This document shows, piece by piece, positions 1 to 29,874 of a stretch of 64,000 bases of DNA (positions are counted from its first letter, which is position 1; every line of letters starts with the position of its first letter). The position numbers and the translations under genes were made by a program. The stretch lies in contig CAYTAJ010000002.1 of the NCBI GenBank assembly GCA_964435725.1, positions 115 through 64,114 on the forward strand. The letters are read 5' to 3'. The notes beneath the pieces are model-generated. The model searched no databases, was not told where the DNA came from, and was given only the letters and a program-made list of their open reading frames with translations. Source of the stretch: an uncultured Algimonas sp. GTDB taxonomy: Bacteria; Pseudomonadota; Alphaproteobacteria; Caulobacterales; Maricaulaceae.

Positions 1-2
1 CA

Positions 3-2556: not shown

Positions 2557-2581
2557 CACTTTATAATTTTACAGTTTTTAG

Positions 2582-4756
2582 TCACGTCCTCAGCATCTGC
2601 ATAGGATATTTATTGGCTCGGCTCCAGAGCATGAAGCTTCCGATTGATCCGATAATCGCGCTTATACTGACGATTATGAAGGCAAGGCCGAAGAGGGACG
2701 GATTAACAATATTGCCCAAAGCCGGAATGAACGCTTTTAAAGCGAATAGGCTTACCCCGGCAACCACAACAGAGATTCCAAGTGACATCATAATTTGCGT
2801 TAAGAAAGCATAGAGGACAATACGTGTTGGTCGATTATGGGCGGCCAAAATTCCAATCGGTTGAGCAAATTTTGATAAGAATAACCAAGCCAGGAAACCA
2901 ATTGTCGATAAGATAGAAAAAATGACAATTAGGGCAAATATCTTGAACCCATCTTCAATCACATTTCGCAATTCGACAATTGATGAAAACTTATTATAGG
3001 CTTCGACATTGAAGATATAATTACGCTTCTTCATTTCTGCGATCGTATCCTTCGCCGTATCTTCGGTAAAATAAACAGAGGCGGCATCAAAATCCTTAAG
3101 GCTGTTTTCGCCTGTAATACTGCGCCATGTTTTAAAAATCTCTGTTGTGCTGACGCCATCAATCGCAAAGCGGTCGTTGTAAGGGGCAACAGGCATAAGA
3201 CCGGCAATTTCAAATGACGGTCCCTTAGCATCATAACCTCGCGCAAATTGCACGGTATCAGGATTGCCCACTGATCCTTCTAATATCACCTGATCATAGA
3301 ATTGTTGGCTTAGTGCGATTTTTAACTCATCCGGATATTGCATTAACGATCCCAAAGTCTGCGTATTCTCTGTTCGATCAGAGACCGATAAGGTTTTCAT
3401 ACAAGCCAATAACGGGTCCAAGGGGTCAAGCAGTAGAAGGCGCGCTCTGCGCGTAATAGGGCGATCATTATCAAGATTAGTCAACAAAACGGACTCAATT
3501 TGATCCAAGCGACCAAAAACCTTTGACGCATTGTCCTCTGATTGATCCGACGTCATGCAACCCTCGAAGGGCGAAGCCGAGCTCTTTGAAAAACTAATGA
3601 GAGAGCTATCGAGTTGGTCAAGATCTTGCTGCCTTAGCCGTGTATTGGCAGCGCGCATATTTTGGACAACAACAAAATGTTGCGTTTGTGGATCTTGCTT
3701 TTGTCGTTCAACGTCTGCGCCCACAAAACTCCAAACCCCAAAGGCTAATGTCGCCAAGGTAAGAATAATGCTTAAGACGAAAATATGTGTGAAGATTTTT
3801 ATCTTTTGAAATTTTTCTAGCCAGTTTCGCCCGGGTTCAAAGCTTGTCATGACAGCCAATGAAGCGGCGAGCGAATAATTATTGATGGCTTGTGTCTTTT
3901 TATCGGCAGGGCCGAAGGAAAGATTAGGTGGTACTGGGTTTATATTTTCGATGATTGCCTTAGAGGGCGTAGTATTTTTTACCGACGGCGCTGTATTGGC
4001 AACGATTTTTTTTAATTCGCTGATATTTTTCGTAGGCCAGTCAATAGGTGAGGCAATACCATCTTCATTAAGGCATATATCATTGATTTCGCCATCTGGG
4101 GTGAGAAACAATACAATATCAGCGTATTCTAAAGCTTGTTCATAATTATGCGTAACCCAGATGATTGTACGATTATCTGTCTCTCTTTGCCAATCCTTCA
4201 ATATAGTGAGGCTCTTTTCGGCCCATATAGGGTCCAGGTCGCTTGTTAACTCATCGGCTAAGATCGTGTCTCTGTTGCGGAGGAGGGCTGACATAAGCGC
4301 TAGGCGTCTTTTCTGTCCTCCGGAAAGGTCTCTAACGCGTGCGGAGATTCTATTGCCTGCCTCTGTTGGCATCCCAAATTGTTCTAGAAATTTTTGAAAT
4401 TCTTCGTCGTTTAACGCGATAATATCCATTAAATCTAGATTTAATGTGACCGAGCCACTTTCAAACAAATAAGAGTTTTGAAAAATAAATGAGCAATAAT
4501 CTCCAGGCGTTTCTTTTACCAAATCAATGGGTCGATCAAGACTGTCTGGGTAAAAAAGTGCAGAGGCATTTTCTGTAACATCCGATGGATATAGACGGCC
4601 CAAAATATTTAATAGCGTACTTTTCCCAGAGCCAGATTCACCTAGAACGGCGATAACCTTGCCTTTGGGAATGTCTAATGCGCCTATAGATAAAACAGGC
4701 GCATTGCCATTAAAGCTACAAGTAATATCGCGAAGTTTATAGAGCAGCCCCTGCAT
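2582..4756 (-). CDS. MacB/LolCDE-like ABC transporter, ATPase fused to permease
   Basis: Walker A GESGSGKST, signature LSGGQ, Walker B ILADE, H-loop VTH. Then TM1, a large periplasmic loop and three C-terminal TMs (FtsX/MacB layout). Confidence 0.88.
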   Translation of the reverse strand: MQGLLYKLRDITCSFNGNAPVLSIGALDIPKGKVIAVLGESGSGKSTLLNILGRLYPSDVTENASALFYPDSLDRPIDLVKETPGDYCSFIFQNSYLFESGSVTLNLDLMDIIALNDEEFQKFLEQFGMPTEAGNRISARVRDLSGGQKRRLALMSALLRNRDTILADELTSDLDPIWAEKSLTILKDWQRETDNRTIIWVTHNYEQALEYADIVLFLTPDGEINDICLNEDGIASPIDWPTKNISELKKIVANTAPSVKNTTPSKAIIENINPVPPNLSFGPADKKTQAINNYSLAASLAVMTSFEPGRNWLEKFQKIKIFTHIFVLSIILTLATLAFGVWSFVGADVERQKQDPQTQHFVVVQNMRAANTRLRQQDLDQLDSSLISFSKSSASPFEGCMTSDQSEDNASKVFGRLDQIESVLLTNLDNDRPITRRARLLLLDPLDPLLACMKTLSVSDRTENTQTLGSLMQYPDELKIALSQQFYDQVILEGSVGNPDTVQFARGYDAKGPSFEIAGLMPVAPYNDRFAIDGVSTTEIFKTWRSITGENSLKDFDAASVYFTEDTAKDTIAEMKKRNYIFNVEAYNKFSSIVELRNVIEDGFKIFALIVIFSILSTIGFLAWLFLSKFAQPIGILAAHNRPTRIVLYAFLTQIMMSLGISVVVAGVSLFALKAFIPALGNIVNPSLFGLAFIIVSISAIIGSIGSFMLWSRANKYPMQMLRT

Positions 4757-4766
4757 ACTTTATTGT

Positions 4767-7343
4767 CTAATCAATTTTACGATAACGTGCAATTTCGCCT
4801 GGAAGGTAGCTAGAAGGGATATAGTAATAATCTTCTCCAGAACTGCTGTTCCATGTCCAAGTGAAGTCTCGCAGGTTATCTTTTGACGTCTTGTAATAAT
4901 ACCCATCATCGTCAGAGGCCGATATCAGCCTCTCATCATTGAGACGCTTTCCGTCAATAACTGTTTCTATGAGATAGCTACTTTTGCAAATAGGTTCATA
5001 AATATTTCTAAGACCTTCATGATCACCTTCAGCTCTCTTTGTTTTCCATTCTTCGACAATTTGGTCCGGTGTGTAGTCTAAGAACGATCCAAAATATTCT
5101 TTTGGGATAAAGAGGTATCTTACAATAATTTCCGATACAGCCATGCCAGATAGGTCATCTGTCGTAACCCTATCGCCAGACATTTTTTGTGCGAGGTTAA
5201 TCATAGCATCTTCTAGTTCGTCACGTACGCTGCCTTTTCCAAAAGCTTCACAAGATGTTCTGACAACACGTTGGAAATCCCGCATTGTTTCACCTGGAAT
5301 ATTAATCCAGAAATCAAAATTATTTTTATCCTCTTGGTATAAGACCCATCCTTCAGTCATGAGTTGCTTCTCTTGACTAATACGCTTTATAGCCGCTTCA
5401 TCATAACCTTGTAATTTAAGTGCCAGTTGAATTTCATCCAATCTCGCATTCGGATAATTCTTTTTAATATCCGCTACTTTTACGAGTTTACCTTCGAAAG
5501 CTTGTTGTAATACATCTGCCGCTGCTAACGCTTCTTGATTAATATTGGTCACGCTCTCAACAATTAAGTCTTTTGTACGATTAACGCTTTCTGTTGTTGT
5601 AGCGGTTGCTCCGGCATCATAGGCCAAGCGAACAGTTTCAGTTTTGATAGAAGGATCAAATATACCACCTTCACTATCTTCAGAAGTAGAGGCCAAGGCA
5701 TCTATTTTTTTACGGATAGACTTAGCTTGTCCAATGAAGTGTCCGTTAATATTCTCACGATAATTCCCAGCAACATTAATCGCATTTATTTTAATGCCAT
5801 TTTCAAAAAAACCCTTCGCCGCCGTTTCTATGCGCGTGTCTAAGCTCTCGTCTTGACGATCCCCATGGTCACCTATCCAGATGACAAGCTTTGAACCAGA
5901 ATTACTGGACCAATTTAGATCCGAAATTGAGCGTATTAATGCTGCAGAGCCAGCTTCTGGAATGTCTTTGTAAGCACCATCTTTGAAATAATCATTATTA
6001 TCCGCTTTGTCGGTCAGCTTTTTGAGGTGAGACACTTCACCAGGTGCTGCAAAATTGGCGACAACTTCAAATTCAAGATTGTTAATGTCCGGGTTTTCAG
6101 ATTTTTCTAAGAAGTCGCCATAAACAGCGGCCGCAAAACGAACCTTCGCTTCATTCTCATCATTGTCCAAATCTAATTTCCGTGTGGCTTCTCTGACGCC
6201 GTCAACAACTGCGGAAAAATAAGGTGACATACTTTTGGAATTATCGAGGACATATAATATATCGATGTTTCTAAAATTCTTTTGTTTTAGAATGTTCTCG
6301 CTCATTTCTGCCAAAGCATCTTGACCTGAACGACAACTTTCACCGTCCCCGTCGCAGGATTCACCAAAGAAACCAATTTGATATTTAGTTTCCCGTGATC
6401 CAATGTCATCTTCTTCATAAGGCCTGTTAATATGGGCCAATATTGGGAAACGCGCGATATTACTTTCCAAAGGCTCGAGGTCGCTCGAGCCAGGATGACG
6501 CCCTAGGACAGCGTTATCATTCTCTTCCACCAAGGCAATATTATTCGCATATATAGCCGTGCCTGTTTTATTTTCGTTGAAGTATAGGCTGACCTGAGAC
6601 TCCCAAGGGAACATAGATGATTGCGGAATCCAACCTGCAATCGACCCAGGTTTTAGAAAGTCATCACCACCGACAAAGAACCAATATTCATCACCGATTT
6701 CATAAGCTGCGAAAACGCGGAATATACTGAATATCCCAACATCTGCAATCTTACGCTTACTGCCAACCGGTCTATCGTAAATGGCAACGCGTCGTGCTGA
6801 GTCTATATCTCCTTCAGAGGCGGCTTTTGGGTTGCTTCTCAAAAGCGCTTTTAGCTCAAGAGGATTCTCAATCTCTTTGGTTTCGCCATTAATTTTAATG
6901 ACCTGTTTTGCAAATTGATTGCCACGATCAGTACCAACTATTCTGTGGTATTCAGTGACCTTCATTTTTTTGAGGCCGTCTCTTAATAGGAAAGGACTTT
7001 CCGTCCATCCACAATAATAACCCGTTTCCCCTTTTTTTGAAATGCCAATCAAAGTTCGCCCTGACTCACTTTTAGATTGACTGAGGCGTTCTTTAAAACG
7101 GATTTCAACATTTTCAGGGAGGACAACTTCGCTTGTCCCTGTTGGTCCGGTAAATAAAGGTGGGCTTGACAATAGGGCAAATGCAAATGGGTTTTCACTC
7201 GATGCTAAGGACTCGCCGAATTCTGCAGGACACGTTCCATCTTTTTCTACTATCATGTCTTGAGCTATTGCGGGGACGCTTGCTAGTATAAAGCAACAGC
7301 CCGAAAGCAAAGCTTGCTTAATGTTCTTGCTAAAATTTCTCAC
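4767..7343 (-). CDS. secreted von Willebrand factor A (vWA) domain protein
   Basis: Signal peptide ending AIA-Q. MIDAS motif DxSxS (YVLDNSKSM), then RFAAAVYGD, IPEAG, LNW and LVIWIGD, typical vWA core elements. Helical C-terminus. GTG start overlaps the upstream stop region. Confidence 0.8.
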   Translation of the reverse strand: MRNFSKNIKQALLSGCCFILASVPAIAQDMIVEKDGTCPAEFGESLASSENPFAFALLSSPPLFTGPTGTSEVVLPENVEIRFKERLSQSKSESGRTLIGISKKGETGYYCGWTESPFLLRDGLKKMKVTEYHRIVGTDRGNQFAKQVIKINGETKEIENPLELKALLRSNPKAASEGDIDSARRVAIYDRPVGSKRKIADVGIFSIFRVFAAYEIGDEYWFFVGGDDFLKPGSIAGWIPQSSMFPWESQVSLYFNENKTGTAIYANNIALVEENDNAVLGRHPGSSDLEPLESNIARFPILAHINRPYEEDDIGSRETKYQIGFFGESCDGDGESCRSGQDALAEMSENILKQKNFRNIDILYVLDNSKSMSPYFSAVVDGVREATRKLDLDNDENEAKVRFAAAVYGDFLEKSENPDINNLEFEVVANFAAPGEVSHLKKLTDKADNNDYFKDGAYKDIPEAGSAALIRSISDLNWSSNSGSKLVIWIGDHGDRQDESLDTRIETAAKGFFENGIKINAINVAGNYRENINGHFIGQAKSIRKKIDALASTSEDSEGGIFDPSIKTETVRLAYDAGATATTTESVNRTKDLIVESVTNINQEALAAADVLQQAFEGKLVKVADIKKNYPNARLDEIQLALKLQGYDEAAIKRISQEKQLMTEGWVLYQEDKNNFDFWINIPGETMRDFQRVVRTSCEAFGKGSVRDELEDAMINLAQKMSGDRVTTDDLSGMAVSEIIVRYLFIPKEYFGSFLDYTPDQIVEEWKTKRAEGDHEGLRNIYEPICKSSYLIETVIDGKRLNDERLISASDDDGYYYKTSKDNLRDFTWTWNSSSGEDYYYIPSSYLPGEIARYRKID

Positions 7344-8808
7344 GTGAAAACTCCACTTTCTCAGCCTGCTTTTCAGCTTGTTTCATTGCATTTTTCCAAT
7401 CCAAATTTTCAGATCTTTCAAAGAGGTCAAAGGCAACGATATTATTATTAAAAGATGCTTCTTTTCCGACTTCACAACGGAAGATCTTTTTGGAACTCGA
7501 TAACTTTATCGCTCCCGTGTCATTGGATGTATCTGACATGGGTAGAATAAAAAACGTTGTTTGATCGTTTGTCATTCCAGAAGCTTGGATTGATTTAACG
7601 GCAGAACGGCAAGAGGGGTATTCATCACTAATAAATAAAATGGCTGTCTTATCACCAGCGTTATATCTTTCACTAATTTGATTAAGAGATGGATTTCTCG
7701 TAAAACTTTGCCGAGGTTGCGTAGAAAGCTCAGTCGCAATTTCTAATAAATTCGAGCTTGTCATAATTTCGGCTGGGAAGTTACCTAAAGGCATAAATAT
7801 GGGCGATATTTTACCGTCTTTATCAGGCCCTATCAGGATACCGTCAGTCCATTTCTTGGATGATACGCCAGTTTTGTAAATACTGTTAGTGATGTCCAAT
7901 GTCTCTCGCCAGCGCGCTATTGACCTATGTATTTTTTCAGACTGCATATTAACATAAGCAATGAAAAGAGTGTTGTTAGGCTCTACTGTGAAGGCAAAGT
8001 CAGAATCTTTTAACAAGGATATTAAGTCTTCCAGAGGATATTCTTCCGTCTCTAAATTGTGTTTTTGGCAGCTAGAAGACCCATAAGGTAATGGGTTGGA
8101 AAAATTAATTTTTACTTTGTCTTTATGACTTGAGCCCGGAGGGATGGCGTCAGAATTTGAAAGATGTATATTTCCTTCAATTTCAAACAGACTGCCTGTT
8201 GTGCCTTGGCTTACATTTAAAATTTGAGCTCGACATGTTGTAATCGGCTTGGAAAAACCTTTGTAATTAATAATAGCCTTTAGCTTGATGCGTTCAGGAA
8301 GAGCTTCGACGTTAAATGCATGGTCTTCATCAAGATTGCCAACCTCTCGTTCTTTGATGGCACCTTCAACTTTATGATCGGGTGTTTGCTCCTCGTCTTT
8401 CAAGCTATCAGTTGTGTCTGCTTTTTCATTCACTAATACCTCTTCAGGCATCTTAGGGTTTGTTTGGTTCTCAGGTGTGGTGGGAGCGTTTTCGGCAAGT
8501 GGGGGCATTTCTGCACTTGGAGATGTTGTGGAAAGTATTTTACTAATCTCGTTGATAACGCTTTGGTTGTCTTTAGGTGGTTCTGTGGCTGCCTTTATAT
8601 CATCATCACTCGCTTCTTTTCTGAGTAACCTTCTGACTATATTCGACGTACTTTCGTGAGAGCTTTCTTTTGTAATATCTTCATTTTGAGTTTGTTCCTG
8701 TATCGGAGTGGCTTTTTCATGATGTTCAGATGAAGATTGCGCAATAGCCGGCGATGCAACAAAATAAGATGCAGTTGTGCAGAGCGATAAATAAAATATT
8801 CTGAACAA
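7330..8808 (-). CDS. hypothetical secreted protein with a long E/T/P-rich linker
   Basis: TTG start with a GGGGGGA RBS on the minus strand. Signal peptide ending AIA-Q. Low-complexity region ~residues 25-170, then a folded region with a TAILFISDE (vWA-like strand) segment. Confidence 0.7.
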   Translation of the reverse strand: MFRIFYLSLCTTASYFVASPAIAQSSSEHHEKATPIQEQTQNEDITKESSHESTSNIVRRLLRKEASDDDIKAATEPPKDNQSVINEISKILSTTSPSAEMPPLAENAPTTPENQTNPKMPEEVLVNEKADTTDSLKDEEQTPDHKVEGAIKEREVGNLDEDHAFNVEALPERIKLKAIINYKGFSKPITTCRAQILNVSQGTTGSLFEIEGNIHLSNSDAIPPGSSHKDKVKINFSNPLPYGSSSCQKHNLETEEYPLEDLISLLKDSDFAFTVEPNNTLFIAYVNMQSEKIHRSIARWRETLDITNSIYKTGVSSKKWTDGILIGPDKDGKISPIFMPLGNFPAEIMTSSNLLEIATELSTQPRQSFTRNPSLNQISERYNAGDKTAILFISDEYPSCRSAVKSIQASGMTNDQTTFFILPMSDTSNDTGAIKLSSSKKIFRCEVGKEASFNNNIVAFDLFERSENLDWKNAMKQAEKQAEKVEFSREKF

Positions 8809-8886
8809 TTTCAGTAGTCCCCCCGCTTAATAATTATCATATTTAAGCATTAACTCTTTTGCAAGTTGTAAAGCTCGAAGAAAAAT

Positions 8887-8901
8887 TTAATTATCTGTTA
8901 A
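8887..8901. promoter_or_regulatory. putative CtrA binding site (TTAA-N7-TTAA) in the divergent promoter region of the tad locus
   Basis: TTAA-TTATCTG-TTAA at 8887-8901, 63 bp upstream of the flp ATG. It matches the established alphaproteobacterial CtrA core, but the region is AT-rich so a chance match is possible. Confidence 0.55.
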
Positions 8902-8964
8902 TATTTGCTTGTATCAAGGTTTTTATTTTGATAGTGCAATTTAAGATAAAATGACGGGGGTCTT

Positions 8965-9228
8965 ATGAAAAACTATTTTAACAAATTTTTACGTGATGAA
9001 GATGGAAACAATCTTGTCGTAGGTTTAATTATTCTTGGTATAGTCGCTTTACCGCTTGTTTTTTGGCTAACGGGCCTTGTAAATAGCTCTCGAGACCGGG
9101 CTTCTGATGAGGCAGATCAAATCTTCAATGAAGAGACGGGTTCTCAATATTCTCCTGGTGGAATGGCTGCTTTAGATGTTGATGAGTTGCTAGAAATTAG
9201 AGTTGCAAACTTAATAGTGGTGATTTAA
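8965..9228 (+). CDS. flp: Flp-family (type IVc) major pilin, non-canonical
   Basis: Typical Flp leader MKNYFNKFLRDEDG| followed by a hydrophobic helix. First gene of the operon, next to the prepilin peptidase. Lacks the E+5/Y+6 motif (NNLVVG). Confidence 0.75.
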   Translation: MKNYFNKFLRDEDGNNLVVGLIILGIVALPLVFWLTGLVNSSRDRASDEADQIFNEETGSQYSPGGMAALDVDELLEIRVANLIVVI

Positions 9229-9250
9229 TTCGTAACAAAGCGGCATATAT

Positions 9251-9805
9251 ATGTCGCTTTTTACGACTGCACCTCTAGCCGTACTTTGCGCTTTCTTGGC
9301 TGTAGCGGCACTAATAGATTCAAGAACGCATAAAATTCCGAACTGGTTAACTTTAATCGGTGGGGTTCTCGGGTTAGGCTTAATTGCTCTTGGGGAGGTG
9401 GCATTAAAGAATGCTCTAATAGGCTTTTCGGCTGGTTTCTTGGTTTTTTTCTTTCTGTACATATTAGGAATTGTTGGGGCTGGCGATGTCAAATTAATGG
9501 GGGTGTCAGGTTTGATTTTGGGGTTTCCCGATATAATCATTTTTCTTTTACTGGCGTGTCTTTTTTCATCCGCACTGAGCCTCGTCTATCTGATCTTGTC
9601 TGGAAGAGGTGGGCTTCTGATTAAGGATTTGTCGCGAATTTTCGCGCCTTTCATTAAGCTTTTCAAAAAGCAATCATCAAAACATGTTGTTTCAAATGTG
9701 CAGGGTGAGGCGATGGTTAAGATGCCATTTGCGCCAGGTGCTTTCATAGCAGCCTTGTATTTTTCATACACGTATATTCCGGTTGTGCAGGTCTACAACG
9801 GATGA
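9251..9805 (+). CDS. cpaA: A24 family prepilin peptidase (CpaA/TadV)
   Basis: DxxxxKIPNWL and GAGDVKL catalytic Asp motifs, C-terminal MPFAP, multi-TM. Confidence 0.93.
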   Translation: MSLFTTAPLAVLCAFLAVAALIDSRTHKIPNWLTLIGGVLGLGLIALGEVALKNALIGFSAGFLVFFFLYILGIVGAGDVKLMGVSGLILGFPDIIIFLLLACLFSSALSLVYLILSGRGGLLIKDLSRIFAPFIKLFKKQSSKHVVSNVQGEAMVKMPFAPGAFIAALYFSYTYIPVVQVYNG

Positions 9806-13162: not shown

Positions 13163-13164
13163 GC

Positions 13165-13980: not shown

Positions 13981-14757
13981 ATGCGGTTAGGAATTATTTT
14001 CTTGCTTATATCGTTGATTTTAGGGGGGTACGCCGCTTGGGAAACGAAGAATAAGCTCAGTGCTGAGGAGCAACGTTTTACAGAATGTTTTCTCAGGACA
14101 AATACATTCATCGGTAAAGGAGAGATCCTTGATGGTGATTCTAGAAAAGGCCTCTACACTCGAGAGTGTTTTTCAAGGTCGTCAAGGATGGATCAAATTG
14201 CGGTTGCGGACACGCCGGCGGATCGTGAATGGGTTGAAAGTAGGGCCGCGGTAGTTGATATCGAACAAGGCGTGCTTTTGTTAAAGCAGTTTTTTGTACC
14301 GCCAGACTCAATGGCATTCGATTTAGATCAAATTGAAAAAGGAAAGCGCGCGATTACAATTGGTGTAACGGAATTATCATCAGTTGGTCAGTTTATTGAC
14401 CCTGGGTCACGTGTCGACATTCTTGGTGTTTTTGAAACCCTTACGTCTATGCCAATAGGGACACAAGGCGAAGAAATCGACATTCCGCAAAGTCGCGTGA
14501 AGACTATCTTACAAAGCGTGAAGGTCATTGCGGCAGGACGGGTAACATCTGATGGCGCTTCGAGACAATTACGTGAGCAAGGCGGAGGGTACCGCACAGT
14601 AACTCTAGAGGTGACACCTGAAGAAGCTGAGCTGTTAGTTATGGCAAAGTCTCAATCATCTGTTGGATTGGTTTTAACACTTCGCCGCAAAGACGAAGCT
14701 AATCCAGTGCCGATTCAATCTGTTGACTTTGATGCTGTTATTAATAACGGCAACTAA
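13981..14757 (+). CDS. cpaB: Flp pilus assembly protein CpaB/RcpC
   Basis: N-terminal TM, SAF-like region, and the RcpC-domain motifs GKRAITI...IDPGSRVDILG, KTILQSVKVIA and VTLEVTPEEAELL. Confidence 0.92.
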   Translation: MRLGIIFLLISLILGGYAAWETKNKLSAEEQRFTECFLRTNTFIGKGEILDGDSRKGLYTRECFSRSSRMDQIAVADTPADREWVESRAAVVDIEQGVLLLKQFFVPPDSMAFDLDQIEKGKRAITIGVTELSSVGQFIDPGSRVDILGVFETLTSMPIGTQGEEIDIPQSRVKTILQSVKVIAAGRVTSDGASRQLREQGGGYRTVTLEVTPEEAELLVMAKSQSSVGLVLTLRRKDEANPVPIQSVDFDAVINNGN

Positions 14758-14774
14758 ACGATCGAACGCAGACA

Positions 14775-16772: not shown

Positions 16773-17631
16773 TATAATAAAAGACCCAAGAATATTGGCA
16801 GCTTTAACGGGCCTGTCATGGACGATTGGATTTTTTAGCTTTTTCTACCTTTGCTGGCAGTTGCTAAAACTGGACCGAAGTAAGCTTGATCTATCTGACA
16901 CACTTCAAAAAGATCGTCCTGTTTATGCCAGTCCAATGGGAATAGATATTAGTTTATATTCCATCATTTCTGGTAGTATTTTATTCATCGCTGTTTTTAT
17001 CGCGACGATTAATCCAATCTTCGCAATTATTGCAGGTGGTGCAGGTTTAACGCTTCCTCATTTTTATCAGGTATATCAAACAGACCAAGAAAGAAAAAAG
17101 TTTGAGCGGGACTTGCCCCAAACCGTTGAGCAAATTGCAAGATGGTTGCGATCTGGGCGTTCTTTAGAAGAGTCCATGAGATTAACGTCTCGCGATGCAC
17201 CGTCTGGAACACGCAGAGAAATGCGGCAAATTGCGAGCGAGCTTGATCTAAACGTCCCTGTAAATCATGTGATGACGACGGCGGCGAAACGTATAGGCAG
17301 CGACGCTTTTAACAACCTTGTTGTTTCACTGGCAGTTGCACGGAAAAGAGGCGGTGATATTCCTGTCGTACTCATGAAATTATCTGGAGCCTTGCGTGAG
17401 ATTATACGACTCAATGAAAAACTTAGAACGGCGACAATGGATGGTAAACGGACGGTCCTAATTATTGCTGTTATGCCTTTTGTAATTACCTTGATTGTGA
17501 TGATGGGACAGCCTCAATTAATCGAAACACTGACCGGTGAGATTCTGGGAATAATCATTATGCTGATAAGTGTCATTTTATACATTGGCGCTTTATATCT
17601 CCTAAACGGCATTCTTAAGACGAAAATTTAG
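16765..17631 (+). CDS. tadB: Tad inner-membrane platform protein TadB
   Basis: AGGAGG RBS at 16753. FERDLP...LRSGRSL T2SS-F pattern, GGDIP, and C-terminal TMs. Confidence 0.88.
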   Translation: MLDIIKDPRILAALTGLSWTIGFFSFFYLCWQLLKLDRSKLDLSDTLQKDRPVYASPMGIDISLYSIISGSILFIAVFIATINPIFAIIAGGAGLTLPHFYQVYQTDQERKKFERDLPQTVEQIARWLRSGRSLEESMRLTSRDAPSGTRREMRQIASELDLNVPVNHVMTTAAKRIGSDAFNNLVVSLAVARKRGGDIPVVLMKLSGALREIIRLNEKLRTATMDGKRTVLIIAVMPFVITLIVMMGQPQLIETLTGEILGIIIMLISVILYIGALYLLNGILKTKI

Positions 17632-18579
17632 GTGGGGGTTATGGATTTCAATTATCAAGAATTTTTAAAGTCTCCCAATTTTATCGCCTTATTGGTTTTA
17701 CTTTGTGTGTTGTGCTTTTCTTTCGCTATATTTTTTATGATACGGCAAAGAATTAAAGATATTAACTCCGGAATTAAATTTGAAAAATCTGAAGATACGC
17801 GACTAATGCTAGATCGCTACCCTTTGCTGAGATTGATCTCAAAAACCTTGACGCCTTTTTTTGATGAAGTGGCTCCCAGGTTTGAAGATGATTTATATGC
17901 TAAATTTAAATTAGCAGGACGTCCAGGTTCCATCGGAGGAACAGCGACACCGCGTGATGTATTTGATACATTTGGGTCTATCGCGATCGCTGGAATATTC
18001 GCCGGATTTTTCGTTACATTAACAATGGGTCTGAACTTGGCTGGTGTTGTGGCGCTTTCGATTGCGATTGGAGTACTAACATATTTTGTGATGTCTGCAT
18101 GGCTAGATGGTGAAGCTTCAAAACGTCAGACAAAAATTGACAATGAATTTCCTTTTTATTTGGATCTTAGTGTCATGGCATTAGGCGCTGGAGCTAAGGT
18201 AGAGGATACGTTTGATTTGTATACCGCCGATCGTACGCCTACACCTTTGTCTGAAGAGTTAAACTTGGTTTCAGGTGAGTTAAAGGCAAGTGTGCCTTTC
18301 ATTGATGCAATGTTGAACTTTAATGGTCGTACACAAGCTTTCTCCGTTGAACGAACAGTTACCGAAATTGTTAATAGCCGTGAAGCGGGTACACCAGTGG
18401 CACAAGTGATGAATATTGCGGCCAAAGACTTAAGAGAAGCGCGTACAAATAATGCAGAGCAAATGGGAGAGAAGCTAAAGTCAAAAATTATTTTACCTTC
18501 AATGATGATGGCCGGTTCGGCTATGCTCCTAATCTTAGGGCCCGCTTTCATTGAAATCTTAAACAGTGATGTTTTGTAA
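17632..18579 (+). CDS. tadC: Tad inner-membrane platform protein TadC
   Basis: IDNEFPFYLDLSVMALGAG, AGTPVAQVM, AEQMGEKL...KIILP T2SS-F pattern. Follows tadB directly. Confidence 0.88.
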   Translation: MGVMDFNYQEFLKSPNFIALLVLLCVLCFSFAIFFMIRQRIKDINSGIKFEKSEDTRLMLDRYPLLRLISKTLTPFFDEVAPRFEDDLYAKFKLAGRPGSIGGTATPRDVFDTFGSIAIAGIFAGFFVTLTMGLNLAGVVALSIAIGVLTYFVMSAWLDGEASKRQTKIDNEFPFYLDLSVMALGAGAKVEDTFDLYTADRTPTPLSEELNLVSGELKASVPFIDAMLNFNGRTQAFSVERTVTEIVNSREAGTPVAQVMNIAAKDLREARTNNAEQMGEKLKSKIILPSMMMAGSAMLLILGPAFIEILNSDVL

Positions 18580-18591
18580 AAAGGGTATATT

Positions 18592-19677
18592 GTGGCTGAT
18601 CCTGATCTATTTATCGAAGTTGCAGACGGAAAATCGGTTAACCGGTTTTTGGTGTCGCCCAAAAAACATGAGTTTGTGATAGGCAGCGGAAAAGCGGCTG
18701 ACTTTCAAATTGGGAAACGTAACCTTAAAGAGGTGCACATAAAACTCGTTAGAAATCCGAATACCCAAGAATGGCATGCGCAAGACCTGTCTAATGACTT
18801 ATTTGAAATCAAAGGAAGCACACAAAAACGCTCAATGGCTTCTGTTGCAATAAAACAAGCGATAACAGTCAATCCAAAGTGTATTATCAGGCTAAACACC
18901 GGAAAGGCTTCACTTTCGGAGAAGCTGCTTGCATCAAAATCTGTCGGAGGGTTAGGCGCCAAGGAATATGCTGTGATGATATTAGCCCCAATTTCTATCG
19001 GTCTAACAGTGTTTATGGTTTTGCAAAACCAACCTGATACAGCGCCTAAGAAAGAATTAGATTCAGTTTTAAAATGCCATGCGCAACGCACAGGGCCTGC
19101 ATTGAAAAAATATAAATATGGGTCAACCTATTTGGAACGCGTTTGGCCAGATGCATTCTATGATTGCGTGAAAAATGCAGAAGCCAGTTGTCGAGTAGCT
19201 TATGGAGAAAAAAGCGAAAAAAGAGATGCTTATCGTGGCACTTATAAAAGCCTTTGTTCTTTCCTTTCCGAAACAAGAGAGGAAACAGATGATGGCAAGA
19301 TTGCTATAGACTATTACGCATCAGAATATCCTGCAAAACGCACCATTGATCAATATAATCGACGGGCATCAGTCAGTGAGAATCAATCATTAAAACCTTT
19401 GTCCGAAAATGCGAAGCAGATTATTTCAGAGGTTTGCTTCACGTGTAATGATTATTCTCAGTTAAATGAAGCCCAAAGACAATCTTGTGATGAAGCCTCA
19501 AAAACTGTCGATGATTTGAGTCGTGCTCGAGAGTTGTGGAGTGCCGGAAGGACTAACGATGCATTAGCAGAATATCGTGCGATAAAGGTGAACTCTATGC
19601 AGTCTTGCGAGGCTTACAGAGCCGCTGATTTAAAATCTATAATTATTCTCAGAACCTCAGGTTCTCAGTCTAGGTAA
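18592..19677 (+). CDS. degenerate FHA-like domain - TM - Cys-rich periplasmic protein
   Basis: N-terminus FVIGSG...DFQI...KEVHIKL...WHAQDLSND follows FHA spacing but lacks GR and SxxH. One TM (YAVMILAPISIGLTVFMVL), 8 Cys after the TM, and a TPR-like last helix pair. Confidence 0.7.
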   Translation: MADPDLFIEVADGKSVNRFLVSPKKHEFVIGSGKAADFQIGKRNLKEVHIKLVRNPNTQEWHAQDLSNDLFEIKGSTQKRSMASVAIKQAITVNPKCIIRLNTGKASLSEKLLASKSVGGLGAKEYAVMILAPISIGLTVFMVLQNQPDTAPKKELDSVLKCHAQRTGPALKKYKYGSTYLERVWPDAFYDCVKNAEASCRVAYGEKSEKRDAYRGTYKSLCSFLSETREETDDGKIAIDYYASEYPAKRTIDQYNRRASVSENQSLKPLSENAKQIISEVCFTCNDYSQLNEAQRQSCDEASKTVDDLSRARELWSAGRTNDALAEYRAIKVNSMQSCEAYRAADLKSIIILRTSGSQSR

Positions 19678-19691
19678 GAATTGGAAACTTC

Positions 19692-22202
19692 ATGCTTGAT
19701 GTGAAATATCAAAGACGTTCAGGGTGGTCATCTACTAGGATGGCTGGGCAGTCTGTTTTGTTAATTGAAACAACTGATCCAGCATTAAGTGTCAGATTAA
19801 TCTCAGAGTTTGAGCAGTTTCAAACTTTCAAAAATGAGTTTGTGGAAAATGGTGGACGTTGGGCCCAAACTAATTTTCTCGATTTTGAAGACAATGCCTT
19901 GTCTGATGGTGAGATCAGACTCGCAAATGCTGGAATATCAGTTGCTGACTTGATTTCAGAAAGCCCCTCTGATGATCTTGCTTTAGAAAACTTATTAAAG
20001 GGTGTGCTAAATGCCTTAGCATATACGCATGAGTCTTACACGCAAAAGGGAGAGAACAGAGGACATGGTAACGTCAGACCCGAGTTGATTTTTCAAGACT
20101 CAAGTTCGGCTGATTATCCTTATCTCTTGGGGCCTGCTCTAAATCGTATCCCCGGACCCTATCAACCAGAACTATATCCTGAGAAAGCTTTTGATAAACA
20201 AATTCCGACTCAAAAAGGAGATTTGTATGCGTTAGGCATGATTGCTTTGCGATTACGGATGGGAGACCAAGAATTTGGCGAGTTTTACTCAGAAATTTAT
20301 GAATTAGAAGGAGATCGTGATATTGCTGCGAGATGGCAGGGCTGGCACGATAATATCTTCTTACATCCAAAGCTAAATCGTAAAGTCGGGGCAGATGATA
20401 AGCTCAGTAATTTTGTTATGCGGTTGTTAGAACGCAATGAAGATGCGCAATTTCCATCGGCCCGTTTTGCATTAGAGGAATTAAGCGAATTTACGGGGGC
20501 CATTAAGGTAAAGCCAGAAAAGACAGTTGTTGTTGAGACGGCGGAAGAAAGCGCGGTCGAAGATGAAGATGATGATCCATTTGTTCTTGAGCCGAAGAAG
20601 AAAAATACCAAACTCATAAATGGTCTTCTTATTGGCGCTTGTGCAATCGTTGCCGCAAGTGTAGCTGTTGTGATTTTCAAACCGGATGTCGTGACAAATG
20701 TTTTTGGGTCCGGTTCTGGTATTACCCTTCAAGCCGTTGACGACACATTGTCTGTAGATATGGCAGATAGTCAAAATACGTCTTGTAATGTCATCACAGG
20801 CACAGGGAATTGTGCCTTTGATGATTTAACAACGAAAAATAAGCGGAATATTGAAAAACTGAAACAAGAAATGTTTGTATCAGCAGTCACATTTGGTGAA
20901 ACAACGAAACGCGAAGCTCCATTTAGATTTTCTACAGATGACGGTTTTTCTTTTGAAATGAGCCAAAATGGTAGCTTGACAGTTAATACTGAAAATATGG
21001 CGGTCAATGTAGATAGCCGTGAAACAAACAGAACAATTTTATATACCTTAAAGGTGAAAAATAAGACGGATGAGGGCGCGGTGAATGTTGTTCTGACGCC
21101 ACCCAATACAAAACCAACGGCCACCACGGACGATGTGAAGATTCCGGTCGATAAAATCGAAGATTTCAAATCATTCTCTCTTCTGAAAAATGATATTGAT
21201 CCAGATCTTGCCAATAAACCTTCTGGTTGGTCATTTAATGAACAATTACGCATTTATTCCGTCAATGGGATCGAGTTTGATGGTTCACCGATAGATGTCT
21301 CTTTTGATAATGGTGAGACGAAAGTGAAAGTCAGACGTGATGGGTTATTAGAGTTTGAAAATGTCCCAGAAACCGTGACAGAGCCCATAAGCGCGAGCTT
21401 CACCTATAATGCGTTTGATGTCTTGGGCGCGCGTTCTGGAGACACGACAGCAAACATTACGATTACAAAACCAGATTGGGAAAACTCTAATCCTATTGCA
21501 CAACCAGACTCAGTTGTGGTGGATATGATAACGGAGTCTTTGCCTGTAATATTTGGTTTAATGGCTGATAATGGGAGCGGCATTGATACCGATAATGATA
21601 TCTCAGAAGAAATGGCTGCTATTGGTATATCTGATAGTCTAAAAGTTATTGATGTTAACGGACAGCCTGTGAGCGCTGGGGGGGACATAAGCCTTTCTAA
21701 TGGTGCTAAGGTCCAAGTCATCGAAGACGGAACAGTCGCTATCCTCGAGGCTCCCAGTAATGTGGAATTTGGAAAGCCTGTCTCGGAGCAATTAATTTAT
21801 ACTCTTGCCGATGAGCATGGCGGACTGGCCAATGGTGTCGCGACACTGAACTTTATGATGTCGGCCGATCCGAACTATGAACAATTAAATGACAGCTGGC
21901 GTATAAAAGTAAGGGGTAGAGTCCCAAATGGGTCTTATCAGCAAGTACAATCAGTTGACTTGCCTTCAATAAATGATTGTCGATCCTTTGCGCGAAATAT
22001 CACAGAAGAAAAAGCAAAAAGATTATTACATCCTGATTATGATTTCTTAGGTGTCTTCTGGGTTCAAGAGTTTGACGAGTATTCAGTTTGCATTTTAGAA
22101 CGTGGCTCAGATGGCCTTTTCCAAGCAAAACTGAAATCAGATGAAACGATAAAGACTAGCTTATCAGCCTTTATTCCAGAAAAATTTGAAGGGGCCGAGT
22201 GA
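19692..22202 (+). CDS. membrane protein: Hanks-type (pseudo)kinase domain - acidic linker - TM - cadherin/Ig-like repeats
   Basis: ALAYTH...HGNVRPE (catalytic-loop position, Asp replaced by Asn), YQPE, DLYALG, and LLERNEDAQFPSA C-lobe motifs. No DFG or VAIK seen. One TM, then three AxDD...NG/DG...YT repeats. Confidence 0.8.
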   Translation: MLDVKYQRRSGWSSTRMAGQSVLLIETTDPALSVRLISEFEQFQTFKNEFVENGGRWAQTNFLDFEDNALSDGEIRLANAGISVADLISESPSDDLALENLLKGVLNALAYTHESYTQKGENRGHGNVRPELIFQDSSSADYPYLLGPALNRIPGPYQPELYPEKAFDKQIPTQKGDLYALGMIALRLRMGDQEFGEFYSEIYELEGDRDIAARWQGWHDNIFLHPKLNRKVGADDKLSNFVMRLLERNEDAQFPSARFALEELSEFTGAIKVKPEKTVVVETAEESAVEDEDDDPFVLEPKKKNTKLINGLLIGACAIVAASVAVVIFKPDVVTNVFGSGSGITLQAVDDTLSVDMADSQNTSCNVITGTGNCAFDDLTTKNKRNIEKLKQEMFVSAVTFGETTKREAPFRFSTDDGFSFEMSQNGSLTVNTENMAVNVDSRETNRTILYTLKVKNKTDEGAVNVVLTPPNTKPTATTDDVKIPVDKIEDFKSFSLLKNDIDPDLANKPSGWSFNEQLRIYSVNGIEFDGSPIDVSFDNGETKVKVRRDGLLEFENVPETVTEPISASFTYNAFDVLGARSGDTTANITITKPDWENSNPIAQPDSVVVDMITESLPVIFGLMADNGSGIDTDNDISEEMAAIGISDSLKVIDVNGQPVSAGGDISLSNGAKVQVIEDGTVAILEAPSNVEFGKPVSEQLIYTLADEHGGLANGVATLNFMMSADPNYEQLNDSWRIKVRGRVPNGSYQQVQSVDLPSINDCRSFARNITEEKAKRLLHPDYDFLGVFWVQEFDEYSVCILERGSDGLFQAKLKSDETIKTSLSAFIPEKFEGAE
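20727..21860 (+). repeat. three protein-level cadherin-like/Big_9-type Ig repeats inside the pseudokinase gene
   Basis: Repeat starts LQAVDD, KPTATTDD and NPIAQPDS. Repeat ends ILYTLKV...GAVNVVL, FTYNAFD...TANITI and LIYTLADEHG...ATLNF. Diverged at the DNA level. Confidence 0.65.
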
Positions 22203-22333
22203 TGAATAATATTCTGGAAATTATTATAGTTTTGGGCGTCATAATTTTACCCATCATGTTGCTGATTTTAAAAATTGTCCAAGGCATAGCGAAACTGAAC
22301 ATGAATGATTATTTCATGTTAGCTACATTTTAA
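22202..22333 (+). CDS. 43-aa pilin-like small protein without a cleavable leader (not in the ORF track)
   Basis: ATG overlaps the upstream TGA and has a GAAGGGG RBS. Translation MNNILEIIIVLGVIILPIMLLILKIVQGIAKLNMNDYFMLATF*. Aligns with the mature Flp N-terminus (NNLVVGLIILGIVALPLV). Confidence 0.65.
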   Translation: MNNILEIIIVLGVIILPIMLLILKIVQGIAKLNMNDYFMLATF

Positions 22334-22343
22334 GTCATAAATC

Positions 22344-23333
22344 ATGAGCGGAACTCTTAGCGAAAAAGAAAAGGATATTTGGACACGCGCCATTCACAAT
22401 GTTTTGGGACCAATTGTACCTTTATTTAATGATGATAGTGTTTCTGAAATTATGATTAATGGACCTTCGGCAGTTTATGTTGAACGCAAAGGTCGTATTG
22501 AAAAAACAGATATTGAATTTCGGTCCGAATATGACCTTGAAGCTGGTATGCGCCGTGTCGCACAATTCGCAGGTCGTCGCTTAGGCCCCGATGACATTAG
22601 TGTTGATGCTCGTCTGCCTGATGGTTCTCGAGTACAAATCGTAAGAAGCCCTGCGGCAAGAAATGGTATGAGTGTCGCGATAAGGAAGTTTTCTAAAACA
22701 ACTCTGAAAATTGAAAACATTATAGGTAGTTCTCTTACACAAGAAATGGCTGACTTTCTTGAAAATTCAGTCGCTAGCCATAAGAACGTTATTATTTCTG
22801 GAGGTACGGGGACAGGGAAAACAACAATGTTAAATGTACTCGCAGACTATATTGATCCTGCAGAAAGAATACTTACAATTGAAGATACGGCCGAGCTGCA
22901 ACTGAATAATGAACACGTTGTGACATTAGAATCACAAAAAGCCCGTGATAGCGGGAAGGGTGGTATAACAATCAGGGAACTTTTTAAGGCGTCTCTTAGA
23001 ATGCGTCCTGATCGTATCATTGTTGGGGAATGTCGAGGTGGTGAAGCCGTAGAATTATTACAAGCGATGACGTCTGGTCATGATGGTACTTTGGCTACGG
23101 TTCATGCAAGTACTGTTCATGACACTTTAAATCGGTTGGAGACTATGGCACTAATGAGTGATATAGATATGCCTCTCAACGCTCTTAGGCGCCAGATTGC
23201 ATCAGCAGTTGATATTATTGTAAATATTGTACGTGAATCTTCTGGGTTGAGAAAAGTTGCACGCATTGCAACAGTTGAAGACAATCTAGATAGCAAAGGC
23301 GATTATGTTTTTGAAACATTGTTCGAATTTTAA
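22344..23333 (+). CDS. cpaF: second, short CpaF/TadA-family ATPase
   Basis: SEIMINGP, VDARLPDGSR, Walker A GGTGTGKTT, TIEDTAEL, RMRPDRIIVGECRGGEA, MTSGHDGTLATVHA. Confidence 0.93.
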   Translation: MSGTLSEKEKDIWTRAIHNVLGPIVPLFNDDSVSEIMINGPSAVYVERKGRIEKTDIEFRSEYDLEAGMRRVAQFAGRRLGPDDISVDARLPDGSRVQIVRSPAARNGMSVAIRKFSKTTLKIENIIGSSLTQEMADFLENSVASHKNVIISGGTGTGKTTMLNVLADYIDPAERILTIEDTAELQLNNEHVVTLESQKARDSGKGGITIRELFKASLRMRPDRIIVGECRGGEAVELLQAMTSGHDGTLATVHASTVHDTLNRLETMALMSDIDMPLNALRRQIASAVDIIVNIVRESSGLRKVARIATVEDNLDSKGDYVFETLFEF

Positions 23334-23348
23334 ATAAAGGCTGGGCTG

Positions 23349-24233
23349 ATGAAGCATTTAATTACAGGATTTATTGTAGCGTTTTCGATATCTGCGGCCC
23401 CTATGATTAGTCATGCTCAATTTGGCGGTTTGGACAAAATTAAAGACAAGTTTTCCAAAACAAAAAAAGAAGCCGATAAAGTTAAGGATACTGTCGACAC
23501 CGTAAACGAAACCCGCGAGACGATAGAAACTGTTCAGGATATGGTGAAAGGCGGGAGTGGTAAGCTTGATAAGCTCTTTAATGATGTGAGCTTAGTCGCC
23601 TCTGCCTATAATCAATGCTCGGACTTAACGATTTCAAAAGGGAAATCGACGGTCACGATTACAGGCGCAACGGATAACCTATCTGGTTTGCGTAAAGATC
23701 TTCCCAAATCAGATTCACTTCGATCAAATACAATCATAGAAATTGATAAATCTATGTGTGATTTTGTTGTGGGTATCCGGCGTATTCAAGACCCTAAAGA
23801 TAAGGAAACACCGTCTCTCACAGGGCCGGGGCGACAACAGGTTGCCGATGCATCGGTCAGAAAGCCCGTTCGTTTACGATTTGATTTTAATGAAGATATC
23901 AAGTTCGCACAATTCTATTATGTTGAATGGAAACCCGATCCATTTGTTGTACCACTCCTAGATTTAAAAAACGCAGAGAGCCGTGAGGATTTCTTTGGCG
24001 GAAATAATATTCCTTTGGCTAAAGGTGGTAAGTCATATGAGCTAAAAGGTCCCGATGGTCCCATTACACTATTTGGTTATGGCCCTCGCTTAATCGTTCT
24101 TGTCGAGAGCAAGAAGGCCTTAAATCTCAATGATGAGTCGCCACAAAAATGGCTAACCTCATTAAAGAAAGCACAGATAACAGGTAATGTTGCTGTGTCT
24201 GTTTCATGGCTAGAGCTTTACACGCCTAATTAA
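23349..24233 (+). CDS. hypothetical secreted protein, C-terminal domain possibly DUF4384-like
   Basis: Signal peptide ending SHA-Q, a charged helical N-region, and a C-terminal beta-domain (VRLRF...FYYVEW...PL...GPRLIVLVES) resembling DUF4384 by eye. Confidence 0.6.
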   Translation: MKHLITGFIVAFSISAAPMISHAQFGGLDKIKDKFSKTKKEADKVKDTVDTVNETRETIETVQDMVKGGSGKLDKLFNDVSLVASAYNQCSDLTISKGKSTVTITGATDNLSGLRKDLPKSDSLRSNTIIEIDKSMCDFVVGIRRIQDPKDKETPSLTGPGRQQVADASVRKPVRLRFDFNEDIKFAQFYYVEWKPDPFVVPLLDLKNAESREDFFGGNNIPLAKGGKSYELKGPDGPITLFGYGPRLIVLVESKKALNLNDESPQKWLTSLKKAQITGNVAVSVSWLELYTPN

Positions 24234-28094: not shown

Positions 28095-28099
28095 TATCT

Positions 28100-29871: not shown

Positions 29872-29874
29872 ATT

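Follow-up and report, generated by a model that had tools for sequence, protein, structure and literature searches.

Tad pili are currently viewed as filaments which extend and retract by means of a single bifunctional CpaF ATPase, and the placement and triggering of their assembly are largely unknown outside TadZ/CpaE and the FHA proteins of the Myxococcus xanthus Kil system. The CpaF motors have been divided into three classes: class I is minimal, class II carries an N-terminal intrinsically disordered region (IDR) and is found in almost all alphaproteobacteria, and class III combines an FHA domain with an IDR (2025 study, PMC12019362). Kil employs a single ATPase and a short secretin without N0 domain (KilC), and it has no TadG (PMC8460266). 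In the type VIIb secretion system (T7SSb), EssB/YukC is a bitopic pseudokinase whose catalytic motifs are all degraded; it attaches phospho-independently to the degenerate FHA domains of the motor EssC/YukB and forms an assembly hub (PMC9600267; PMC12599244). In type VI secretion (T6SS), a threonine-phosphorylation pathway places assembly at sites of contact or damage. The authors of the Kil study compared their system with this pathway, and they as well as the T6SS literature connect FHA, kinase and ABC modules with assembly on contact. Here, we analyse a Tad-like locus at positions 2582-24233 of a 64-kb seawater-metagenome scaffold (hereafter ‘the window’, meaning this whole stretch of DNA), where 18 genes in two divergent operons encode two CpaF paralogs together with a kinase-like and an FHA-like membrane protein.

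The Tad/Flp core (CpaF/TadA ATPase, TadB, TadC, A24 prepilin peptidase, CpaB/RcpC and TadE/TadF/TadG minor pilins) is present. The locus resembles the Tad systems of Caulobacter and Aggregatibacter in these parts (TadE and TadG among the minor pilins) and in the Flp-type leader of a small pilin. However, these systems use one bifunctional CpaF whereas the window encodes two paralogs, its pilin lacks Glu5-Tyr6, and no secretin, CpaD/TadD or CpaE/TadZ is found in the locus. Furthermore, the locus adds a pseudokinase, an FHA-like protein, a protein of 43 amino acids (aa), a VWA protein and an ATP-binding cassette (ABC) fusion protein. With slightly more confidence than doubt, we lean towards reading it as a complete and conserved inner-membrane type IVc machine of a rare subtype. 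It would derive from a class of two-motor Tad-like loci equipped with kinase and FHA proteins, and phospho-independent docking would serve contact-gated adhesion.

The 836-aa kinase-like protein has no Pfam Pkinase match. A profile of its residues 1-270 retrieved, beyond its own family, about 46 weak collinear matches (E 2e-9 to 1e-3) from a library of 1.8 billion proteins. Seven outside matches were scanned; each is a true Pkinase protein, and four also have an FGE-sulfatase domain at the C-terminus. With tblastn, the kinases of two related loci, L016 and L017, gave E values of 1e-8 and 1e-9. At the catalytic positions HRDLKPxN has become HGNVRPEL and DFG has become LLGP, no Gly-rich loop (GxGxxG) is seen and the β3 lysine is not alignable. 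The HRD aspartate, the Mg-binding asparagine and the DFG aspartate are lost. Since the catalytic motifs are replaced, and invariantly so in 8 of 8 members, we regard the protein as a pseudokinase. Its C-lobe motifs PE, GDLYALG, RWxxWH and RFxSA are still present. Remote Pkinase homology and the loss of all catalytic residues thus bear out the dead kinase fold proposed in a preliminary description of this DNA. Hydropathy places a transmembrane (TM) helix at residues 311-329. The following 500 periplasmic residues show cadherin-like repeat signatures (Cadherin_4 E 0.06) and end in a conserved, Cys-containing domain. Two of the weak profile matches, the kinase-like proteins P0022 and P0025, have HCN/HAN for HRD and SD-G for DFG, then an FHA-like segment in the same polypeptide; they may represent another pseudokinase-FHA pairing.

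Both ATPases match the solved Caulobacter CpaF (Table 1) and the TadA family TIGR03819 (E 2e-72 and 4e-81), are 42% identical to each other and keep intact Walker A/B motifs, Asp box and His box. The long paralog comprises a degenerate FHA-like region (residues ~1-125), a helical linker (~126-300) and the CpaF N-terminal domain (NTD) followed by the ATPase. Its closest relatives outside the family which cover 73-95% of the query are proteins of ~620 aa, most of them annotated as FHA+T2SSE. Against an N-terminal profile of 68 FHA::CpaF sequences, its first ~106 residues align with an hhalign probability of 87.5% (E 3.6e-6); a reference of nine sequences was too weak for this comparison. The short paralog is reduced to a minimal NTD and ATPase and is the most conserved protein of the system, so that the locus combines a class III-like with a class I-like CpaF. 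Each ATPase stands in a long-branch clade of its own when the ATPase cores are compared in a rough neighbour-joining tree. Core identities to FHA::CpaF proteins are 52-54% (long) and 48-49% (short) versus 46% and 41% to Caulobacter CpaF. Own clades, nearer to FHA-fused CpaFs than to the Caulobacter protein, agree with the earlier proposal of a distinct Tad subtype. Across the family the short CpaF remains 68-93% identical while the pseudokinase drops to 29-36% (tblastn), and the sequence conservation indicates that both ATPases are under strong purifying selection. The top-scoring non-family matches of the long CpaF (P0069-P0105) are CpaF-like proteins of 775-1159 aa which cover about half of the query. 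One of them is labelled Chloroflexota, and they look like tandem or extended CpaF fusions.

In the long CpaF, the conserved GR of the phosphothreonine-contacting residues is changed to GT and the SxxH and Asn positions are lost; a dead FHA domain in this protein is well supported by its sequence. The second candidate is the bitopic 361-aa protein. At its phosphothreonine contacts Arg is replaced by Ser, Ser by Lys and Asn by Asp, with His49 kept. The alignment to an FHA profile reaches E 2.7e-4 over 72 columns (hhalign probability 42%). The protein occupies the operon slot of the true FHA-TM proteins of L016, L017 and L018, and its topology matches the FHA proteins of L016 and L017 (FHA 1-100, TM near 125-145). 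A dead FHA domain is therefore supported here as well, mainly from position and topology. The term ‘FHA-like’ used in the preliminary description stands on this strong positional and topological side, and the sequence side stays below threshold. The periplasmic part of the protein (145-361) is Cys-rich and mostly helical, with seven invariant cysteines.

L016, L017 and L018 place these proteins in a wider class. L016 was obtained from P0138 and L017 from P0114, the nearest architectural relatives of the long CpaF, and L018 from P0017, the best kinase match of the pseudokinase profile; these loci were thus reached independently from the long CpaF and from the pseudokinase. They have a common order: short CpaF, flp, cpaA, tadE, then cpaB, FHA::cpaF, tadB, tadC, FHA, kinase and OmpA. 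In all three loci Pfam recognises the FHA domains; the FHA proteins measure 283-289 aa. The kinases, which join Pkinase to an FGE-sulfatase domain (788-827 aa), match Pfam Pkinase in all three and are canonical in two. Reciprocal best matches pair the short ATPase of the window with the short ATPases of these loci, and its long ATPase with the FHA-fused ones; the short CpaF finds its best match in the short ATPase and not in FHA::CpaF (55% vs 47% in L016). The GC content of the wider class ranges from 43 to 64%, and in none of the three loci is a secretin found within 10 kb.

The wider class differs from the family of the window in several respects. The periplasmic part of its kinases is an FGE-sulfatase domain (TagR-like, COG1262) whereas the pseudokinase carries cadherin-like repeats. 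The mini-ORF and the short ATPase stand at the start of the operon and not at its end. The VWA/ABC operon and orf294 were seen in the family of the window alone, and a counterpart of orf294 was not found in the wider class. The kinases themselves form a decay series. In L016 the kinase is canonical, with VAIK, HRD (HRDLKPGN) and DLG; in L017 it has lost DFG; in the window it is fully dead. The L017 kinase (K17, 8398-10842) reads HLDIRPET and has LSLGN in place of DFG, an intermediate step of decay within one synteny. Compared at this level, the family of the window is the fully degenerate end of a kinase/FHA-equipped two-motor Tad-like class. Because the wider class has recognisable FHA domains and, in two of the three loci, a canonical kinase, the ‘repurposed folds’ of the preliminary description can be recast as a traceable decay of a signalling module.

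L017 holds one further gene of interest. At 15297-15777, the gene after tadG runs off the end of the locus and encodes a TadE-type prepilin N-terminus, NQFG|LASVEMCLIMPVV. Its 491-aa product has a precomputed match to PF14021 TNT, an NAD+-glycohydrolase toxin domain. On the basis of these two sequence features, it is possible that the protein is a toxin-bearing minor pilin.

The arrangement of the module is strictly kept among its relatives. All 18 genes occur in the same order in each related metagenomic locus long enough to cover them (tblastn), and every contig with a homologue of the 836-aa protein has the identical gene order. This order is retained in L013, L015, L009/L010 and L011, down to pseudokinase identities of 29-36%, while the right-hand flanks differ; judged from these sequences, it is far beyond chance. 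In the more distant members L009 (14892-18783), L010 (13235-20093) and L015 (19874-21992), one or two OmpA-domain proteins are encoded after the module. A two-partner secretion (TPS) pair comes next in L009/L010, made up of a ShlB/TpsB gene and a TPS-domain protein of at least 984 aa; in L015 the ShlB gene is visible, cut by the end of the locus.

The family is rare. A word-indexed search among 5.8 billion clustered proteins gave five homologues of the 836-aa protein, all family members, and a profile search among 1.84 billion representatives gave four 50%-identity clusters. The FHA-like protein has four homologues in the word-indexed search, again all family members. Altogether, the pseudokinase family numbers about eight members among billions of proteins. 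Scanning JGI metagenomes with the pseudokinase profile gave no match. The GTDB scan returned one metagenome-assembled genome (MAG), labelled uncultured Algimonas sp. (Alphaproteobacteria, Maricaulales, Robiginitomaculaceae), which is the only named genome carrying the orthologous locus. The alphaproteobacterial host proposed at the outset rests, indirectly, on this MAG.

How could such a machine operate? Without phosphorylation, the dead kinase domain would dock onto the FHA-TM protein, onto the long CpaF through its degenerate FHA domain, or onto both. Through this docking the long motor, along with the TadB/C platform, would be tied to the large domains in the periplasm (cadherin-like repeats and Cys-rich domain). 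These domains might report the state of the envelope or surface jointly with the VWA protein and with the ABC protein as a mechanotransducer, so that pilus assembly would be placed or gated by contact and not be constitutive. The TadE-TadG-TadE trio may form a disulfide-rich tip complex. The two motors could divide their labour, the long one driving regulated extension and the short one acting in retraction or as an unregulated helper. The output would be adhesion, triggered by a surface or by contact, in a marine alphaproteobacterium that is associated with algae.

Docking of this kind has a precedent. T7SSb EssB-EssC shows the same architecture, a bitopic pseudokinase and a motor ATPase with a degenerate N-terminal FHA domain. 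However, its motor is of FtsK/SpoIIIE type and not a CpaF, and it belongs to another machine and another envelope (Firmicutes). Searches of PDB sequences gave no match to EssB/YukC. As no sequence similarity is detectable, EssB/YukC is an analogue and not a family member. A scaffold role for the kinase and FHA folds, as first proposed, has sequence support since the kinase is catalytically dead and the phosphothreonine-contacting residues are replaced in both FHA-like domains; the T7SSb case (PMC9600267) adds the precedent.

The H1-T6SS of Pseudomonas aeruginosa, with TagQRST-PpkA-Fha1, offers the same types of parts: a kinase in the membrane that also has a periplasmic domain, together with an FHA protein and an ABC complex. 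PpkA carries a periplasmic VWA domain. TagTS (COG1136 plus COG4591) is a Lol/MacB-type ABC and TagR (COG1262) an FGE-like periplasmic protein. In contrast to the window, the kinase and FHA protein of this contractile injection system are active and phospho-dependent, and the likeness is one of domain type only.

Several points weigh against the proposed contact-gated adhesion machine. No secretin was found among the scanned open reading frames (ORFs) of the 64-kb window or of the related loci; it may be encoded elsewhere in the genome, and its lack in the locus leaves any passage of a filament through the outer membrane unexplained. Equally, no CpaE/TadZ or CpaD/TadD family was found among the proteins of the locus, the window or the related loci. 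The candidate pilin has a Flp-type leader and a hydrophobic helix, but its mature end NNLVVG lacks Glu5-Tyr6. The sequence matches of the FHA-like membrane protein are sub-threshold (Pfam FHA E 0.2, YscD_cpl E 0.23, GltG E 0.028). The AlphaFold2 (AF2) models of both accessory proteins, built on alignments of 4-5 sequences, have low pLDDT (42/45), the FHA-like model showing an all-β N-terminus at low confidence. A sensing role of the ABC/VWA operon would be drawn from analogy only. The division of labour between the motors is a guess, and Caulobacter manages with one bifunctional CpaF. Finally, all loci are metagenomic, and none of the RNA runs searched contained the sequence.

In Foldseek searches against the PDB, the top matches of the pseudokinase model were kinases, at non-significant E values (E>1), and those of the FHA-like model were meaningless. 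PDB sequence and profile searches with both proteins gave no match. As both models are poor, the kinase and FHA folds rest on arguments from sequence, profiles and synteny.

The first alternative to consider is an ordinary adhesive Tad pilus, in which the accessory proteins would be structural parts specific to the lineage, for example substitutes for CpaE/CpaD or an alignment complex, without any gating and with a redundant second ATPase. The complete core fits this view, and bitopic proteins could stand in for TadZ/CpaE and the secretin-associated parts, which are missing. VWA proteins, moreover, often serve as adhesins, and the host is probably a surface-attached algal epibiont. However, the loci from which the module descends have FHA domains that Pfam recognises and kinases of the serine/threonine kinase (STK) family (canonical in two of three), which argues for regulation in the ancestor. 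In addition, the strong purifying selection on both ATPases, with the short one at 68-93% identity, suggests that the second ATPase is not redundant, and the two paralogs are kept separate across the whole wider class. We consider such an ordinary adhesive pilus unlikely.

The preliminary description had suggested a Kil-like system, which leads to another alternative: a weapon which assembles on cell contact and kills or intoxicates through a minor-pilin tip or a partner system. Kil also has a motor ATPase with an N-terminal FHA domain (KilF; degenerate in the window), associated FHA-type proteins in enriched number, a minor-pilin trio that possibly forms a tip and many conserved genes without assigned function. 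The KilF-like FHA::CpaF architecture speaks for the suggestion. Membership of the Kil system is not supported: the locus has two ATPases, TadG and no secretin, against the single ATPase, the short secretin and the missing TadG of Kil. Furthermore, Kil is encoded in two clusters and has a type III secretion system-like (T3SS*) partner; the window has degenerate FHA domains and a host which is not a known predator. The word kinase does not occur in the Kil paper.

As to the killing itself, the TadE-type prepilin (G|LASVEM) on the TNT-domain protein of L017 is in its favour, and so are the OmpA genes after the module in L009/L010 and L015, with the TPS pair in L009/L010 and ShlB in L015. The three-gene TadE/TadG/TadE set also resembles Kil tips. 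However, the window lacks the OmpA/TPS and TNT genes, and its closest relative L013 likewise has neither TNT nor TPS. None of the 18 proteins contains a toxin, immunity or lytic domain (Pfam/NCBIfam). No effector, toxin or T3SS*-like partner is seen in the locus and no T3SS-like genes in the window. The flank encodes the repertoire of an alginate- and pectin-degrading heterotroph and not that of a predator, and Kil tips reportedly occur in Myxococcota only. For the window, we judge a weapon to be rather improbable.

Live phospho-signalling, by a non-canonical kinase mechanism or phosphorylation in trans with FHA-like domains still reading phosphothreonine, would be in line with atypically active pseudokinases such as SelO and SidJ, with the MviN pseudokinase which is phosphorylated by PknB and recruits FhaA (PMC12599244), and with the kept His49, but it is very improbable given that the HRD Asp, Mg-binding Asn, DFG Asp and Gly-loop are all gone with invariant replacements, that the phosphothreonine-contacting Arg, Ser and Asn are replaced in both FHA-like domains, and that no PP2C phosphatase or second kinase is found in any of the loci.

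The contact-gated adhesion machine that we favour has some consequences beyond this locus. It would be a two-motor Tad design made by nature, whose paralogs have stayed distinct over differences in GC content on the scale of phyla. A kinase/FHA module inside a Tad operon would supply the ‘missing kinase’ logic that the Kil authors inferred only by analogy with T6SS. The passage from canonical to partly degenerate to dead kinase in one synteny would make a clean system for the question of how a phospho-switch becomes a scaffold. The 836-aa protein would be the first membrane pseudokinase linked to a type IV filament machine. No family associated with pili is mentioned in a review of bacterial pseudokinases from 2025 (PMC12599244), and the literature searched holds no description of a Tad-linked pseudokinase or of a two-motor kinase/FHA class. 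A bolder proposal, which we regard as doubtful and offer tentatively, is that of a new Tad-like class with two CpaF motors, one regulated and one minimal, no cognate secretin in the locus and kinase/FHA gating analogous to the T6SS threonine-phosphorylation pathway, decayed here to a scaffold convergent with EssB-EssC and toxin-tipped in some members. If true, the toxin-tipped members would extend contact-dependent Tad weaponry past the predatory Myxococcota.

The genes of both operons are closely packed (Table 1). Most junctions are overlaps or lie 0-18 nucleotides apart, for example ATGA at 22202 and the pairs 9805/9802, 13162/13156 and 16772/16762; the only wider gaps measure 23, 157 and 297 nucleotides. 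Each gene listed in the preliminary description was found, with coordinates and order as given there. Pfam and NCBIfam recognise the Tad core and the nucleotide-binding domain (NBD) of the ABC protein, and the VWA domain weakly.

Table 1. Operons and genes of the Tad-like module (positions in the window)
Feature	Position	Strand	Details
Leftward operon	2582-8808	-	orf492 (first gene), VWA protein, ABC fusion
ABC fusion, 724 aa	2582-4756	-	ABC_tran E 2.6e-21; NBD of LolD/MacB (COG1136) type
Secreted VWA protein, 858 aa	4767-7343	-	TssR_VWA E 8.8e-6; VWA E 0.0037
orf492, secreted protein, 492 aa	7330-8808	-	Signal peptide; low-complexity N-terminal third
Rightward operon	8965-24233	+	Flp-like, A24 peptidase, TadE, TadG, TadE/Flp, orf274, CpaB, long CpaF, TadB, TadC, FHA-like, pseudokinase, 43-aa ORF, short CpaF, orf294
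Flp-like major pilin candidate, 87 aa	8965-9228	+	Leader FLRDEDG|NNLVVG, Flp-type motif
Prepilin peptidase CpaA/TadV, 184 aa	9251-9805	+	Peptidase_A24 E 1.1e-19
TadE-type minor pilin, 322 aa	9802-10770	+	TadE E 0.0012; cleavage motif G|NWTIEF; 7 Cys
TadG-type large minor pilin, 579 aa	10771-12510	+	PF13400 Tad E 1.8e-7; 8 Cys
TadE/TadF-type minor pilin, about 222-234 aa	12458-13162	+	TadE E 0.0017; Flp_Fap E 0.0013; 5 Cys
orf274, periplasmic protein, 274 aa	13156-13980	+	No family (Pfam/NCBIfam); directly upstream of cpaB
CpaB/RcpC, 258 aa	13981-14757	+	RcpC E 1.2e-22; TIGR03177 104 bits vs cutoff 71
Long CpaF paralog, 665 aa	14775-16772	+	T2SSE E 2.4e-50; PDB CpaF 8rkd E 2.7e-78
TadB platform protein, 289 aa	16762-17631	+	T2SSF E 6.8e-16
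TadC platform protein, 315 aa	17632-18579	+	T2SSF E 5.1e-11
Bitopic FHA-like protein, 361 aa	18592-19677	+	β-rich cytoplasmic 1-105, TM 126-144, periplasmic 145-361
Bitopic pseudokinase, 836 aa	19692-22202	+	Kinase-like cytoplasmic 1-270, TM 311-329, periplasmic remainder
Conserved single-TM protein, 43 aa	22202-22333	+	Start overlaps pseudokinase stop (ATGA)
Short CpaF paralog, 329 aa	22344-23333	+	T2SSE E 5.9e-57; PDB CpaF E 3e-74
orf294, secreted protein, 294 aa, last gene of operon	23349-24233	+	No family (Pfam/NCBIfam)

The Flp-like pilin matches no Pfam family, Flp_Fap included. It is kept in L013, L015 and, in the wider class, in L016 and L017 with the same G|...PLV pattern, and the absence of Glu5-Tyr6 is common to the wider class. 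In the prepilin peptidase both catalytic Asp motifs are visible (LIDSR..IPN and GAGDVKL). The 322-aa TadE-type pilin has a leader of ~61 aa, with an additional hydrophobic helix and the motif WEAxLxSPTF before the cleavage site, and this feature is kept in L016 (5567-6406). Such an N-terminal extension far exceeds the usual length of Tad leaders. The TadE/TadF-type pilin shows the canonical motif G|TTAIEF and is called as a 222-aa protein in L001. Both TadE matches (E ~1e-3) fall under the gathering score whereas the Tad domain of the TadG-type protein reaches E 1.8e-7. Orthologues of both TadE-type pilins are found by tblastn in the related loci, and those of the TadG-type protein are 34-84% identical. 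By analogy with the tip-complex model for TadE/F/G trios (PMC12075869), the TadG-type protein is probably the backbone of a tip complex.

The two family-less proteins of the rightward operon are also conserved, orf274 with 25-76% and orf294 with 25-73% identity in four loci. Against the wider-class gene that occupies its slot, orf274 gives a weak full-length hhalign match (E 5.7e-4, 205 columns).

The small protein between the pseudokinase and the short CpaF is a real gene whose product measures exactly 43 aa in seven loci. Pro17 is invariant, and the C-terminus carries the motif LNxNDYFLLxxF. In its hydrophobic segment the protein resembles the N-terminus and helix of a mature Flp pilin (NN..., G11, P16). 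L016 and L017 have counterparts of 45 aa, encoded upstream of the short ATPase. The preliminary description called it a mini-pilin; this identity is unproven because there is no prepilin leader and the Glu is not conserved. A leaderless mini-pilin with Glu5 was considered and rejected, as the Glu is present only in the closest relatives.

Because the divergent orf492-VWA-ABC operon is present in L013 and also in the distant L015, it belongs to the system, and its place back-to-back with the tad genes, noted from the start, is thus kept in other loci. The VWA protein has a signal peptide and a VWA domain at ~354-539 with a DxSxS MIDAS motif (VLDNSKSM); its orthologues in the same position are 87% (L013) and 52% (L015) identical. 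The ABC protein was first described as ‘MacB-type’. This label rests on its N-terminal NBD, whose NCBIfam matches include MacB and LolD, and on its topology by hydropathy (TM1 at 321-339, a periplasmic loop of ~270 aa, three C-terminal TM helices); no FtsX or MacB periplasmic-domain Pfam match was found. In L015 the NBD stands in the same position and is 59% identical over the available part. orf492 matches no Pfam or NCBIfam family and is kept at the same position with 42% (L013) and 32% (L015) identity.

Beyond orf294, between the module and the glyoxylate-shunt genes, the window has a gene for a glyoxalase and two family-less ORFs (112 aa on the minus and 296 aa on the plus strand; window 24985-26314). 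None of these genes adjoins the module in L013, which sets the right border of the unit at ~24233. On the left, no related locus extends beyond the ABC fusion gene. The adjoining segment (window 1-2581) has the lowest GC content of the window (35%) and contains three ORFs (489-962, 932-1999 and 1996-2556) without significant Pfam or NCBIfam family. The module has 41.9% GC compared with 46.9% for the right flank; the difference is only moderate and suggests horizontal transfer of the module. No mobile-element marker, Rfam family or tRNA was seen in the window, and scans for promoters and terminators at the operon borders gave no more than expected by chance.

Further to the right (26505-31305), isocitrate lyase and malate synthase of the glyoxylate shunt stand beside a divergent regulator (helix-turn-helix, Peptidase_M78 and ScfRs), followed by a resistance-nodulation-division (RND) efflux pair. 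The segment 41711-63477 is a locus for alginate/pectin utilisation, with genes for a TRAP transporter (DctP/DctM), a short-chain dehydrogenase/reductase (SDR), a LacAB/RpiB isomerase, a LacI regulator, a pectate-lyase-like β-helix protein, two TonB-dependent receptors, a GntR regulator, a lyase of the Chondroitinase_B family (PL6-type), an alginate-lyase/heparinase II-III protein and a 3-hydroxyisobutyrate-dehydrogenase-like reductase. The glyoxylate shunt and the alginate/pectin genes of the right flank fit an algal epibiont as host.

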